The position numbers and the translations under genes are program-made. This document shows positions 3,248-53,000 of a stretch of 64,000 bases of DNA, one piece after another. The notes beneath the pieces are model-generated. The model was given only the letters and a program-made list of their open reading frames with translations. It searched no databases and had not been told where the DNA came from. Location: positions 1-64,000 of the IMG/VR virus record IMGVR_UViG_2713896909_000009. The stretch is one strand, 5' to 3'. Source of the stretch: a virus (Duplodnaviria; Heunggongvirae; Uroviricota; Caudoviricetes). How positions within the stretch are numbered: the stretch's first letter is position 1; each line of letters opens with the position of its first letter.

Positions 3248-3546
3248 AACCTACCATCGAACACGGCTCTATTGATCTCATCGTCGTTCAGGCTTATAGT
3301 TCCACCGTCGTAGCAAATTCTGCGACCAGGTTTGACAGCCTGAATACGAATGCGGACAACCGCAGATTTCCGATATTGCGGTATTTTTGTGTCCGTAAAC
3401 CACGTTACGCCCGAATTATGGTGGGGCGTGATGGGGAGGCTTCGGCCTGCTGGTTTCATTCGTGCCAGTCTGTCAACCCTGTCACGTCCTGCCACCTGTT
3501 TGACAGCGGGTCGCAGGTTGTTAAACCTACGAATGAGGCCGTAACT

Positions 3547-16730: not shown

Positions 16731-17031
16731 AATACTACCATTGAACGCCAGAGTATTGATCTTCCTGTTGTTCAGGCTTATAGTTCCGCCGTCGTAGCAA
16801 ATTCTGCGACCGGGTTTGACAGCCTGAATGTACATGCGGGCAACCGCAGATATCCGATATTGCGGTATTTTTGTGTCCGTAAAACCACGTTACGCCCGAA
16901 TTATGGTGGGGCGTGATGGGGAGGCTTCGGCCTGCTGGTTTCATGTACGCCAGTCTGTCAACCCCGTCACGTCCTGCCACCTGTTTGACAGCGGGTAGCA
17001 GGTTGTTAAACCTGTACATGAGGCCGTAACT

Positions 17032-23373: not shown

Positions 23374-23557
23374 AATGGCAGCCTCCTTTTGCTAACTTAA
23401 GGAGCTACCGCGTGAGGTTCCAATCTCAATGGCGGTAGCACTGACTGGGTTGGAACTACCGGCGCAAAAGGGAACCGGCCTGCCTTTCGGCAGCCCAGCC
23501 AGCACTACCATTGATCTCGGAGCTATGTGCTACGTATGGCTGTGCGATGGCATGACA

Positions 23558-23579
23558 CAAAAAAAGACGCTTTTGGCGT
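23558..23579 (-). terminator. intrinsic terminator inside the cassette-3 leader
   Basis: plus strand 'aaaaaaa gacgc ttttg gcgtc'; in minus sense a hairpin followed by T7. Confidence 0.45.
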
Positions 23580-23712
23580 CTGTGTCGCCTTTTGCATTAT
23601 CCGGGGTTCCAATCCCGGCACCCGTTTTAATGAGGTGCCTGATAAGCATAAACCGAAAATGCCTCAAGGCGCAAGAGGTCAGGTTCAATGTAACATCGGT
23701 AGTCAAAAAACA

Positions 23713-47765: not shown

Positions 47766-48054
47766 TGGTTATCCCTCAATAAAAGTGACATATTTATTAG
47801 ATTGCGGTGCCGGGTGCCTCCCGGTGACGTTAACCAGTTAACAATTAACGCCGGAATGTTTAATCATCAAGGAGGATTGTTTTAACTGTTCCGCGTGCGC
47901 TTAGCCGCATTCACCACAACGGAAAGAGCATTTATGGCTCGCATCGCGGGAAAAAGCCCACGGTAGAGAGTCGAACTCTACAAATACTCTTACCTGTTGT
48001 GTGCTCCGTTTCGTGGAGCTAACGGCGGAGTAATCATCCGCCTCAAATTTATAA

Positions 48055-48468: not shown

Positions 48469-49155
48469 TGGTGACAGTTTCTAAATAAATTGTGGTGGTC
48501 GGCGCTGATCTCCGACTGCGCCTCTTTTTGTTCATAACCCATAAGGCCGGTCAGTGCGCTTGATGACTGAGGCATCGATATTTACTACGCCGCCTCGTTG
48601 CCATAGGGCGGACTTGCGCGCCAGCAACACGCATTCACCACAATGTTGAGAACACTGGTTGTCACGCGGCAACGCAACATTTATTCATAGGTTGGGAAAT
48701 GAACCCGTTACGCCAATGTTCTCAACGTTGTAGTGCCGGTTACGGTTCCGGCCAGGCCTCTTCCTCAACGGGGTGTTCTCCGTACGGACTACCGTTTATT
48801 GGTCGTTCCTGCGGTTTATGTTGTGAAGCCAGATGCTTATCTTCTGGTTGCTTCAAAGAGCTGCACTTCATCACAACGGTAAGAGCACTCGATGCATTTA
48901 AGCCAAGCCCCATAAGGGAGAATGCCCTTACCTGTTGTGTTGTGATGACCGGTGCTGATCTCCGGCTTGCGGTTATTTCAGACTCTCACGGGCGTTTAAT
49001 TGCCCCGCCGGACAGCTCTTTTCCGCAATAGCTGCAATGTCTTTCGCGCATCAGCCTGCGCATTCATCACAACGGTAAGGGTACTTCGTAGGGATTCGAA
49101 CCCTCTGCCAAGCTCGGCGATCTCCGACGTCGCAAAATACCCTTACCTGTTGTGC

Positions 49156-49288
49156 TGGTGCCGGTTAACGGATTCGAACCGCTGACCTCTGGCCTAACAT
49201 CGAATCGTTGTCATTTGACCAGCAAGGCTGTCTACCGAAGTAGAAACGATGCTTTGGCTCTCGTGCTCTCCCACTGAGCTAAACCGGC
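49156..49288 (-). ncRNA. atypical 133-nt tRNA-like element
   Basis: 5' 'GCCGGTT TA GCTC AGTGGGA GAGC' and 3' 'AGCGG TTCGAAT CCGTT AACCGGC A CCA' with perfect 7-bp acceptor pairing, separated by about 83 nt with a UUCG hairpin and no canonical anticodon arm. Confidence 0.35.
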
Positions 49289-49290
49289 AT

Positions 49291-49366
49291 TGGCGATGGT
49301 GGGTGGATTCGAACCACCGACCAGTTAGTTAACAGCCAACTGCTCTAACCGCTGAGCTACACCATC
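49291..49366 (-). tRNA. tRNA-Asn (anticodon GTT)
   Basis: 76 nt 'GATGGTGTAGCTCAGCGGTTAGAGCAGTTGGCTGTTAACTAACTGGTCGGTGGTTCGAATCCACCCACCATCGCCA'; canonical cloverleaf. Confidence 0.8.
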
Positions 49367-50036
49367 ACTTGCCGGGTACGTCTCCGGCGAGGGCTTCCAC
49401 CTCCGTATGCTTTTCGGCGCACCGCGCCCTGGCTGCAATTCGGTAACAGGGGATGCATAACCCTGGCTTCCAGCGTGATTAGCGCTTTCAGCATGACGGG
49501 ATATACCCGTAAATTCGTGGAACTGTACCCAAAGTGCTGTTAAGCACCGCTGTTACGCTGAAAAGAAGACGCAACAGGAAAGGACGCTGACCAACAGATG
49601 GCCCCTTCTCGTTCATCTGGTTAATCACACCAGCGCCCTTACCTGTTGTGCCTCCCCGTTCCCTAATACACAGACGGGGACACTCTGCGGTCGATTTTTT
49701 GACGGGGGACGACTCATACCCCGTGGCGTCTGGCTTCTTAGGCCGCAGCCATCATCAGATCATCGTTTGCATTTACTTTAATGGTCAGTTTCTAAACCGC
49801 CGCAAAGTCGCTAACCATGACGAAAACCCTGAAAAAACGCCCACCCGAAGATGGGCAAACAGGATGTAAGCTCGTTACGCATTTCGGTATTGCCACTTAG
49901 GCGTATGGTCAACCTGGCAACTCGGCGTCATGAGGGGGAAGGAGTCACTACCCCGCCATACTTGCCGCCGCGCCTGTCGCGGCTAACAGCTAAATCGCTC
50001 TATAAATCACGATTCATTGAAACCATATTACACTAA

Positions 50037-50053
50037 TGAATTTATTAGAGCAA
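50037..50053. promoter_or_regulatory. C1 operator-like site overlapping the dmt stop codon
   Basis: 'gaatttattagagcaat' (reverse complement ATTGCTCTAATAAATTC). Confidence 0.5.
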
Positions 50054-53000
50054 TATAGCAATAACGTCATGAGCTACACCACGAGTGTTCCCCTTACAAG
50101 ACACAGAACGTCTGGCAAAAAGAGGTTCCACTCTGAAGCCACTGTCTTGGTAAAGCTCCCTGATGTTTGGCGCACCACTATTAGTAATGAGGATCTTTGC
50201 ACCTCGGCGATGAGCATCCATTAGCAGAGATACCAGGCGTTTTTGCTCTTCAAACTTAAAGTCATGACCGGAATAGTTTGTGAACCCCTCTGTATTGGGG
50301 AGCGGTTCATACGGAGGATCGCAAAAGATGACATCTCCTTCTCCGGCAGCTTCAATCACCGCTGAAAAATCACCACATACAAACTCAGAACGCCCTTCAG
50401 CACCGAGGAAGGCTTCCATCTCCTGTAATGGGAAATACGGAGTTTTATACTTCCCATAACCAACATTAAACTCACCGGCCTGGTTGTAACGCGTCAATCC
50501 GTTAAAACAATGTCGGTTCAGGAACAAAAACGCTGCTGCACGATGTAAATCATCATAGGCTTGTTTGTTAAACGCATTCCGTACTGCCAGGTATCCTTCC
50601 TGTGTGTTGTAGTCCTGGAAAAACCGATGCGCCAGAGTGATAAGTGAATGTCCCTCACGTTGCAGAGTCCTGTAAAAGTTAATCAGGTCAGCATTCACAT
50701 CATTTAGCAGATTTTCTTGATATCCGGCATTTATGAAAACAGCTCCGCCACCAACGAAAGGCTCGATCAGGCGCTTTCCGTCAGGTAAATGCCTAAAGAT
50801 TTGTTCAAGAACACCAAATTTTCCGCCGACCCATTTAAATATGGGACGGTCAAATTCTGCCGTTAGCTTAACTCTCCGTTCTGTTGCTTCATGATTTTTT
50901 GCCTGCTGATATGCAGCCTTAATAATCCGCTCACCAATCCATCGCATTACTGGTATCGCCATGCTATTGCCGATCGCTTTGTAACGCGGTCCGTCAGCTG
51001 CAAGCATCGCGGCCTCTTCTTCGCTTAAATCTGGATAGTGATTGCGAAGGTATGCCAGTTCATCTGAAGTAACTTTTTTACGCTTTTCCGTCGGGATCAA
51101 CGTATGCCCATCAGGAAAACCTTGCAGTCTTTCACATTCGACAGGGGTAAGACGGCGGACAGCTACTGCTGCGTTTCCTACGTCATAGCAAACGGCTGTT
51201 GTATTTTTGGCCATTAAAGATGGTGAAGTATTCTTAGTTGCAGCATGTTGTGTACCGCTCATACGTTCAGGAAAAGCCAATGTAACAAGATGCTCATGGC
51301 TTTCTTGCTCACGTGCCCGCAATGTACCATGCCCTTCTGACCAAAAACCTGCTCCTGTGCTGCTAAAAACTGCAAGGTCAGTGGCATCTTTAAAGTCTCT
51401 CGCCTTTACTGTCGATGCGGTTTCATCGCCAATATATTCCCCAAATGCCGCCATCCTGAAAGCGTTTACGGCTTTCGTCGATTTCATACCGGGGGTAATG
51501 TCAGCGTGTAGGCATGGATTTAGGCTTTCGCCACTGATTGCAGCGCCATTTGCAATAATGGCGGAAGCGATTTCCTTCTTTTTTCGGCTCGGCGCAATAT
51601 TCCGGCGCACGCCTTCGAACTCAAAAAGTACCGTTGCGGGATCGAGGTCTGTTCGAGCACTTGCGACAACAAACACACGTCGGCGTCGTTGTGCCACTCC
51701 GAAGTATTGGGCATCAAGGATTCTCCAGGCCACCTTTCGCTGCGGTCCATAAATACAACCACACTGCGGCCACTTTGGAGCATGGCAACCGGTTTTGCCA
51801 TCCCACCGCCAGAACGCGTTACTTTTTCCTGATTCAGGTCGATCACCTGGTTCAAATGGCGCATCTTCTCCAGCCAATCCGGCAAGGAAACATCCGAAGG
51901 CGTTATCTGCCGATGACAAGACTCCTGGGACATTTTCCCAGACGATAACGGCTGGTTTGAGAAATGACTCAGCCCGTTTGTCGTCAATTGCATTTGCAAG
52001 CTCCACATACTTTAAAGTTAGCGCGCCACGCTCATCATCAAGCCCACCACGTAATCCCGCGATACTGAATGCCTGACAGTTATGGACCACCGCACCATTG
52101 AGGATATAGGAATGATCACCTTCGACTTCTATGTTGTATACAGTATCTAGGCCTACCGATTTAAACTCTTTGACTGTTCGTAAAAGCATTCCATGAGCCA
52201 ATCTTGATTTACGTGACAATTTCTGCGGGCAGATTGTTACCTGATAATAATTCCGTTGATTTACCACGCGATCCTCGATCACTTTTTTGGGCTCAACTTC
52301 AATAAAGCTGACCGAAGAAACATAACCACAAGTCTGTGACACCCCCGCAACGCCCCAAGCAAGCGCAGGACTAACACTATTAATTCTAAATCCCGCTTTA
52401 CCACTTGGTGTCCCATCAGTATCAAGATAGCCTTGTAAAAACACATGACGCAATGGATGCGACATCACCCATGCAGGGATACGCTTAGCATGGCTTAACT
52501 CGCCAAAATGTTCATTAAGCCAATTGGCATAACACGTATCATTCAAGGTTACTTTGATGCTCCCTCGGATTTCTCTTGCCACGGAAAATATGTTTTCTGG
52601 TATGCGACAATGAAACTTTCTCAATTTCTGGCAATTTATGCAAAAAACAACCGCCTTCTTAGATTTACCTCTCCATCTCCTAATATATCCATCGCCAACA
52701 TAAGCGCCCGCAAGATACATAGCCTGTTCTTCAGACAAGAACCGAGAACAAATATCTGGAGATGCAATATTGAAATTAGTTAGAGCGCACCATTGATATC
52801 CTGGCATATCACATGCTGCTCGCCATTCCGGTTCAGACAACAACTCTCTCTTAAAATATGTGCCATTTTTCCGGGTGTTTTGGGCTTTCCACCGAACAGC
52901 CAGGAAGGGATGGTCATTGGTTGTTCTTATACCTAAAGGCTGCCCAACGGCATTAAGTAACCCCGTATTAGCTATTTTTGAACCAACTCTTTTTACTTGT

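Follow-up and report, generated by a model that had tools for sequence, protein, structure and literature searches.

A probable family of non-decoding, tRNA-shaped RNAs in phages, with a member at the trnT position of a P1-like genome

Phage tRNA arrays are usually read as helpers of codon usage or as replacements for tRNAs that are destroyed by host defences. Phage T4 also makes two stable RNAs of ~120-140 nt, species 1 and 2 (rnaC and rnaD), whose function is unknown and which are produced and processed together with the T4 tRNAs. In the laboratory, Ponchon and Dardel reportedly engineered a 'tRNA scaffold' in 2007, in which a recombinant RNA takes the place of the anticodon arm. YrlA and other bacterial Y RNAs (RF02553) mimic the D, T and acceptor arms of tRNA and have a second, protein-binding module (PMC4201824), and phages are known to encode solitary-repeat RNAs (Racrs) that inhibit type V-A CRISPR systems and match the 33-36-nt repeat at 90% or more (PMC10651486). 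The tRNA genes of the P1-family phages P1 and JL22 lie in the order dmt, C1 operator Op72 with Pban, DicF-like region, trnA (Asn), trnT (Thr), plp/upl, tciABC, trnI and ban, with plp/upl on the strand opposite to trnA and trnT.

In this study I describe an element found on the minus strand of the window, i.e. the whole stretch of 64,000 nt of viral DNA that was analysed, where the gene order is the same as in P1 and JL22. I consider it, with a probability of roughly 0.6, to be a functional, non-decoding, tRNA-shaped RNA from a family that is spread among phages and that, as judged from Rfam and the literature, is apparently undescribed.

Position and layout of the element

The element runs from 49288 to 49156 on the minus strand and, by a covariance model, occurs once in the 64-kb window. 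It reads GCCGGUU-UA-GCUC-AGUGGGA-GAGC-A-(75 nt)-AGGUC-AGCGG-UUCGAAU-CCGUU-AACCGGC-ACCA, with seven perfect pairs in the acceptor helix, a D stem of 4 bp, a T stem of 5 bp (one G-U) and an encoded CCA. The first-pass annotation had described a 133-nt element with intact acceptor, D and T arms and CCA that starts two nucleotides past a tRNA-Asn gene, and direct reading of the minus strand agrees in every respect: the tRNA-Asn ends at 49291 and the 2-nt spacer is AU. The CTAC-TTCG-GTAG hairpin reported in its middle is also present, as UCUAC-UUCG-GUAGA at 49231-49244. The features of the locus are as follows.

49156..49288, minus strand: whole 133-nt tRNA-shaped RNA gene, a family member (covariance model R1, 157.7 bits, E 9e-29, full length)
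49282..49288, minus strand: 5' strand of the acceptor stem, GCCGGUU (perfect pairing with 49160-49166; double changes at 7 of 7 pairs across the family)
49265..49279, minus strand: D arm, GCUC-AGUGGGA-GAGC (helix 100% paired, n = 19 sequences)
49189..49263, minus strand: 75-nt replacement of the anticodon arm (alignment to trnT of P1 and JL22; RNAalifold and pair counts), consisting from the core outwards of an irregular CGAGA/CAG stem, a GCC/GGC stem, an internal loop, helix P1 and a four-way junction
49199..49250, minus strand: conserved core module AUCGUU-P2-P3-P4-AACGAUUCGAU (in 19 of 19 distinct family sequences; no Rfam match)
49231..49244, minus strand: hairpin P2, UCUAC-UUCG-GUAGA (5 of 5 stem pairs constant in 19 sequences)
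49220..49230, minus strand: hairpin P3, CAGC-CUU-GCUG (covaries)
49210..49219, minus strand: hairpin P4, GUC-AAAU-GAC (GGC/GCC in L271 and L290; loop variable in length and sequence)
49196..49209, minus strand: near-invariant 3' strand AACGAUU and CGAUGUU, with two CGAU copies (outer pair N-N' covaries)
49184..49188, minus strand: variable loop AGGUC (kept in nearly all members)
49167..49183, minus strand: T arm, AGCGG-UUCGAAU-CCGUU (double changes at 3 of 5 pairs)
49156..49166, minus strand: 3' strand of the acceptor stem, AACCGGC, with discriminator A and encoded CCA (sequence)
49291..49366, minus strand: tRNA-Asn(GUU), 2 nt upstream of the element (SSU5-like type, not phage P1 type; compensatory stem differences)
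50027..50054, minus strand: C1 operator Op72/Pban region, presumed operon promoter by alignment only (to annotated P1 features, 1 mismatch)

Between position 26 and the variable loop the element has 75 nt, in which a 5-bp anticodon stem with a 7-nt loop (U33, anticodon, purine 37) is absent, as CGAGA cannot pair with GCCAG. The lack of such an arm had been noticed before and is confirmed by the gene finders, including the Rfam search proposed at the time as a check. ARAGORN without introns calls nothing at the element in the window and none of the 19 family members. The Rfam tRNA model (RF00005), run on the element alone, gives a spurious partial local match of 13.5 bits, below its gathering score of 29, and some homologues reach 35-47 bits with this model, as a tRNA with a large insertion. 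Lacking an anticodon loop, and with an arm whose length by far exceeds what the ribosomal A or P site can take, the element cannot decode.

The 600 bases around the element show 94-97% identity to the P1-family phages JL22, RCS47, P1, D6, SJ46 and P7, always in two separate matches with ~57 bases missing between them. The 740 bases upstream of the tRNA-Asn, operator included, are 96% identical to phage P1, and in the comparison of the window with P1 the cassette of tRNA-Asn and element is all that differs, its flanks being 96-100% identical. Over 161 bases around the element the identity is 100% with pEA22_2, a 96-kb P1-like replicon of Escherichia albertii, and identical (100%) copies of the element occur in P1-like plasmids of this species. 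The alignment to the P1 tRNA region, also suggested at first pass, puts the element at the position of trnT, whose tRNA-Thr had been reported missing from the stretch and is indeed lacking in the P1-like lineage of the window. When aligned with P1 and JL22, the element keeps the acceptor 5' strand, the D stem and the T arm of trnT, and has wholly other sequence for the anticodon arm and variable loop; judged from these alignments, the change from trnT to the element is a replacement and not a simple insertion. The tRNA-Asn of the window is of the SSU5 type; compared with that of P1, its anticodon and T stems carry paired, compensatory changes. Hence tRNA-Asn and element have probably been exchanged together between families of phage-plasmids. 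The pair probably represents a cassette gained by recombination, with no protein gene along.

Three long hairpins (z-scores -5.2 to -5.8) were seen on the minus strand of the same region, at 49565-49660, 49060-49155 and 48865-48945. They have a common basal stem, ACAACAGGUAAGGG... / ...CYCUUACCGUUGUGAUGA, and differing tops, the middle one (49060-49155) with the T-arm-like GAGGGUUCGAAUCCCUA. These hairpins flank tRNA genes, and are found also after the normal trnT in phage P1 and after the element in SSU5-like plasmids; they could be processing stems of the RNase III type or another family of scaffolded RNAs. The segment 48938-49074, which overlaps one of them, is ~98% identical to lambdoid phages (mEp460, IME207, Stx2c phages), its counterpart in mEp460 lying just downstream of the prophage repressor gene, and appears to be a small module common to unrelated temperate phages. 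The open reading frame at 48699-49031 on the plus strand corresponds to P1 'plp' (putative lipoprotein) and runs antisense through the conserved hairpin RNAs; in phage P1, plp even overlaps the 3' end of trnT. Its annotation as a protein may be worth re-examining. A borderline Rfam match to STnc100 (47803-47918, minus strand, 47.3 bits with a gathering score of 47) is located between the plp/upl region and tciA, and a similar match, below threshold, lies near the element of phage Jgk1 (L291:4846-4955). Elsewhere, the window has three C4 antisense RNA genes, at 3414-3499 and 16899-16984 on the plus strand and at 23428-23515 on the minus strand, with a1/b1 target sites for two of them (3294-3346 and 16778-16830), and an isrK-like RNA at 23560-23638, from which several immunity-I-type modules can be read, as opposed to the single one expected for P1.

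The family and its shared fold

Pattern scans of IMG/VR, metagenomes and GTDB genomes, combined with BLAST against cultured phages, retrieved the ~52-nt core from no fewer than 19 distinct sequences, whose tRNA bodies differ and whose acceptor stems are unrelated. It is carried by P1-like and SSU5-like phage-plasmids, by Escherichia phage Jgk1, by jumbo-phage contigs (134-342 kb) and by one contig of an Orrella MAG; the carrier loci that were measured vary in G+C from 32 to 48%, and metagenome contigs among the carriers reach 866 kb. The SSU5-like phage-plasmids of E. coli and Salmonella have full-length copies that are 93-97% identical and are located between tRNA-Asn/tRNA-Tyr and tRNA-Ser, the G-U pair in the T arm of the window copy being A-U in the Salmonella copies. 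The E. coli homologues are listed as 'tRNA-OTHER' in PGAP annotation, with identical 133-nt ends. Members with other tRNA bodies come from the loci L136/138/149, L139/151, L142/144, L143, L148/150, L147, L186/213/289, L200 and L297, and further ones from L140 (a 342-kb phage contig), L141/145 (a 70-kb contig), L259 (171 kb), L290, L271 (the contig binned with the Orrella MAG) and phage Jgk1. A first pattern scan of genome contigs gave no match and a second one mostly chance matches, and the cultured-phage collection had no similar sequence beyond Jgk1. Among its closest relatives the element is rare: of 709 plasmids with a match to the region 11 carry it, as do 6 of the 5,426 complete E. coli genomes. 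In every locus with enough flank to scan it sits among tRNA genes. Neither topic nor exact-sequence searching of the literature brought up a description of the family, and no Rfam family covers the element.

The covariance model R1, built from 12 members, scores the members at 95-161 bits and ordinary tRNAs of the same loci at 53 bits at most. With 157.7 bits, the window copy is far beyond chance resemblance, and it has all motifs of the family, namely a tRNA body with AUCGUU-UCUAC-loop-GUAGA-P3-P4-AACGAUYCGRU beside a tRNA-Asn. In most members, though not in all, the tRNA body includes an encoded CCA. One lineage, seen at L186:470-599 and also in L200, L213 and L289, departs in its acceptor: ahead of ACCA, GAUGUGGUG and CACCACAUC allow the helix to reach 9 bp, which is unusual for the acceptor of a tRNA-like RNA.

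A consensus fold was obtained with RNAalifold from a MAFFT alignment. It consists of the acceptor, D and T helices, a 3-bp stem (GCC/GGC in the window), the 6-bp helix P1 and the hairpins P2, P3 and P4. When the 19 distinct sequences are aligned to the model, standard pairs fill 99.1% of the pair cells, compared with 82% in shuffles and 30-48% when the partners are slid by 1-3 columns; changes on both sides are seen at 20 of 39 pairs, and none of 500 shuffles is as high on any measure. As this alignment was fitted to the model, the pair counts are somewhat inflated, but the MAFFT/RNAalifold result is independent of it and agrees. Pairing amounts to 98-100% in the acceptor, D and T helices, which also covary among the members. 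In the new arm, the outer P1 pair (N-N') is CG in 7 sequences, GC in 7, AU in 2, GU in 2 and UA in 1, P3 occurs as CAGC/GCUG, CGC/GCG, CUGC/GCAG, CCC/GGG and GCC/GGC, and P4 as GUC/GAC and GGC/GCC. This covariation supports the cloverleaf arms, the long irregular arm and the four-way junction.

Other parts of the arm hardly vary at all. The P2 stem UCUAC/GUAGA is the same throughout, with loops of UUCG, CUCG, UCCG, UUAG, GUAA or GAAA, the 5' strand AUCGUU is constant in the 19 sequences, and the 3' strand AACGAU(U/C)CG(A/G)U is near-invariant, with AACGAC in Jgk1 as the sole variant of its first part. Several of the search patterns had left P2, AUCGUU and AACGAU free. Pairing of AUCGUU with AACGAU would close the four-way junction without linker bases and leave a 5-nt bulge (YCGRU). 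In an alternative register, AUCG pairs with the second CGAU copy; the two registers are ~4 kcal/mol apart (-40.6 vs -36.5 kcal/mol), and the variation in the family fits either. At the base of the arm, beside the tRNA core, a conserved irregular stem sets C-R-A-G-A opposite C-A-G, in which G30-C41 is changed to A-U in L141.

At -49.3 kcal/mol, the minimum free energy fold of the single sequence is another structure than the comparative model (-40.6 kcal/mol), and it is not conserved. It includes a pairing of AACGAUUCGA with the T arm of the element itself, which I discarded as a family feature because the T loops of homologues differ and the pairing is not conserved. A CGAGAG resembling the sarcin-ricin loop and a K-turn in the CRAGA/CAG region were considered by inspection only and also dismissed, the former as its sequence is not kept as GNRA and the latter as the strand rules are not met.

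The phage tRNA arrays in which the family is found contain other odd tRNA-like genes too (L142:1779-1887, L142:1895-2001, L291:1671-1760, L271:1937-2007 and L141:580-645). Their acceptor, D and T arms are normal, their middles are expanded or odd, and ARAGORN does not call them, which suggests that a tRNA body with a foreign middle is a wider phenomenon.

Alternative readings and a possible function

As the core is conserved across many unrelated phages with compensatory changes, it points to a real RNA family and not to a broken gene. The first-pass annotation had left room for a pseudogene, i.e. a tRNA-Thr gene that was disrupted by an insertion and is drifting, and a mere chance resemblance can be considered alongside. 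Both would fit the rarity of the element among P1-like and SSU5-like replicons and its inability to decode. However, the module is kept nearly base for base in carriers with unrelated tRNA bodies, G+C contents (32-56%) and genomes, compensatory changes are found in P1, P3 and P4 as well as in all tRNA stems, and the members lie more than 40 bits above ordinary tRNAs in the covariance model, which makes decay or chance scarcely credible. An interrupted tRNA had been suggested as well, in which the ~57-nt module would be an intron, removed by itself or by an enzyme to give a working tRNA for Thr or another amino acid. The trnT position, with the acceptor and T arms of trnT retained, is what one would expect of such a gene; moreover, tRNAscan-SE within PGAP takes the homologues as tRNAs of undetermined type, and the Rfam tRNA model spans some of them with a large insertion (35-47 bits). 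However, the flanks that should form the anticodon stem have been replaced too, and CGAGA...GCCAG cannot make the pairs 27-31/39-43. When introns of 0-120 nt were allowed (n = 19), ARAGORN proposed tRNAs for Val, Ser, His, Lys, Arg and Ile and failed on 3 of the 19 members, and the forced introns, of 42-59 nt and starting at 30-36, cut the conserved module at differing points. The ~57 nt are also far too few for a group I core, no Rfam intron family matches, and outside the module the rest of the arm shows both conservation and helical covariation, which an intron would not lead one to expect. A bulge-helix-bulge splicing endonuclease is not known from bacteria, and inspection of the consensus structure revealed no obvious 3-4-3 bulge-helix-bulge. 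An interrupted tRNA is, with all this, very unlikely.

The remaining early suggestion, a tRNA-derived RNA with a regulatory or decoy role, holds in so far as covariation and spread argue for a conserved, structured, non-decoding tRNA-shaped RNA; the role itself is putative. The element lies downstream of the C1-controlled Pban and of a DicF-like RNA with a terminator-like hairpin, and the 2-nt gap leaves no room for a promoter, so that it should be transcribed together with tRNA-Asn. Its position suggests that this would happen in the C1-repressed ban operon on lytic derepression, and that RNase P and 3' trimming would release it like its tRNA neighbours, to give a stable CCA-ended RNA of ~133 nt. 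The tRNA body could serve as a scaffold by which the RNA is matured, stabilised and brought into tRNA-handling pathways; as the acceptor varies freely in sequence, the identity of an amino acid probably does not matter. The working part would then be the junction module, presumably by sequence-specific binding of a conserved host-encoded partner, most likely a protein. An invariant 5-bp stem with a free loop would be expected of sequence-specific protein recognition or of a catalytic or ligand-binding core, though the invariance of stems might just as well reflect a ribozyme core, a ligand pocket or an alternative pairing. In an all-against-all comparison of open reading frames for members of 12 lineages, no protein gene was consistently linked to the element. 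PF13876 (the N4 gp49/Sf6 gp66 family) is encoded near it in SSU5-like, Jgk1-like and L290 contigs, but with three lineages only, and absent from the window, it was rejected as an obligate partner, and Rad52, RdgC, a methylase and gp5.9 are shared by pairs of lineages only. As the cassette moved without a protein gene, and the module is alike in apparently very different hosts, the partner is more likely host-encoded and conserved, unless the RNA acts by itself. The invariant strands match E. coli 16S, 23S and 5S rRNA at 9 of 11 positions at best, nothing notable. Conceivably, the RNA helps in host take-over or counter-defence, as a decoy or as an inhibitor. My tentative proposal, drawn from sequence and position, is that the tRNA-scaffolded RNA inhibits a conserved host factor, or acts as a decoy for it, during early lytic growth; I would give this clearly less than even odds.

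Action of the RNA by itself has to be weighed against this proposal. On its tRNA scaffold, the module could be an aptamer for a small molecule, for instance a sponge for immune or stress nucleotides, or a small ribozyme. Riboswitches and ribozymes show a similar pattern, with an invariant junction strand and proximal pairs, variable distal loops and covarying peripheral stems, a co-transferred protein gene would not be needed, and the hosts appear diverse. On the other hand, all five P2 pairs are invariant, the junction-distal ones included, as one would not usually expect of an aptamer, no riboswitch or ribozyme of Rfam matches, and no candidate ligand or cleavage site is evident; I consider such an RNA quite unlikely. 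In a broader form, which is unlikely too, tRNA bodies would be natural scaffolds on which phages express small effector RNAs, the junction module being a new catalytic, ligand-capturing or protein-capturing RNA. If true, the module could, e.g., soak up a conserved immune or stress factor of the host and be delivered as a tRNA look-alike from tRNA arrays, and the odd tRNA-like genes at L142:1779-2001 and L291:1671-1760 would be further cargoes.

A more specific idea is that P2, with the UU on its 5' side, mimics the hairpin at the end of the type V-A (Cas12a) repeat and so titrates away the nuclease, as an RNA anti-CRISPR would. In a comparison made after the fact, GUUUCUAC-UUCG-GUAGAC (49231-49246) agrees with AUUUCUAC-UGUU-GUAGAU at 13 of 18 nucleotides, including the whole 5-bp stem; the repeat end used was AUUUCUACUGUUGUAGAU, from supplementary file 1 of PMC10651486. 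A protein that reads the repeat stem would explain the constancy of P2. However, the match may be a coincidence. It is limited to the hairpin, the 5' AAU and 3' U of the repeat being replaced here by CG.. and C that are invariant in the family; the hairpin is locked into the four-way junction in the model; and 13 of 18 nt compares poorly with published Racrs, which match nearly the whole 33-36-nt repeat. E. coli, Salmonella and E. albertii, the hosts of three carrier lineages, are not normally known to have Cas12a. Such mimicry is highly improbable.

For the preferred reading, a functional tRNA-shaped RNA that does not decode, a conserved array member of this kind suggests that phages also use tRNA maturation to make stable effector RNAs. 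The family is a candidate new class of structured RNA, annotated so far only as 'tRNA-OTHER', and genes of this kind ought to be left out of counts of decoding tRNAs. Its module is compact (~52 nt), with one hairpin and one strand almost invariant and the other helices covarying, a signature of conservation that earlier led to new riboswitches, ribozymes and protein-binding RNAs. With carriers in tractable hosts (the phage-plasmids of E. coli, Salmonella and E. albertii, and phage Jgk1), its function is directly testable.

Comparison with known RNAs

Among the closest known genes is trnT of phage P1: it has the same locus, 2 nt past tRNA-Asn, and nearly identical GCCGGUU strand, D arm, T arm and ACCA end. 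It differs by its CCUGC-CUUGUAA-GCAGG arm, where the element has the 75-nt arm with AGGUC and no anticodon loop. Like canonical phage tRNAs, the members of the family sit in tRNA arrays, at least in those loci that could be scanned. With tmRNA, the element has in common a tRNA-like acceptor and T arm, the CCA, and a long irregular helix that replaces the anticodon and leads to a structured domain. However, it keeps a full D arm, has C-G instead of G3-U70 at position 3-70, lacks a reading frame and a pseudoknot ring, and is 133 nt long as compared with ~360 nt for tmRNA. A tmRNA identity was dropped after a negative ARAGORN tmRNA search and the lack of an Rfam tmRNA match on the element.

YrlA is, like the element, a tRNA-mimicking non-coding RNA with a second module, and there are YrlA examples in phages too. 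Its topology is another one, as YrlA is circularly permuted, has its ends in the Ro-binding stem and is encoded beside Ro60 (rsr), whereas the ends of the element form the acceptor stem. The YrlA match obtained here (21.4 bits vs a gathering score of 69) spans both tRNA-Asn and element, and the topology of the element is not permuted, for which reasons YrlA was rejected; a Ro60/TROVE (rsr) gene is not annotated in the loci examined (PGAP, Pfam scans). Rfam runs covered the window, the element alone and five homologous loci, and at gathering and permissive E-value thresholds gave no riboswitch or ribozyme family in the window or the homologous loci; tRNA-with-insertion matches on some homologues and the sub-threshold YrlA artefact were the entire output there. 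The published Racrs are also small phage RNAs with an invariant hairpin that resembles the CRISPR repeat hairpin, but the hairpin of the element forms part of a junction within a tRNA body, and the similarity is confined to this hairpin.

T4 species 1 and 2 are alike in size and in their tRNA-cluster context, a likeness by description and not by sequence. The engineered tRNA scaffold is similar in principle: a tRNA body provides for RNase P and 3' processing and for nuclease resistance, and a cargo replaces the anticodon stem-loop. The scaffold is a laboratory construct, whereas the element would be its natural counterpart, with a conserved cargo.
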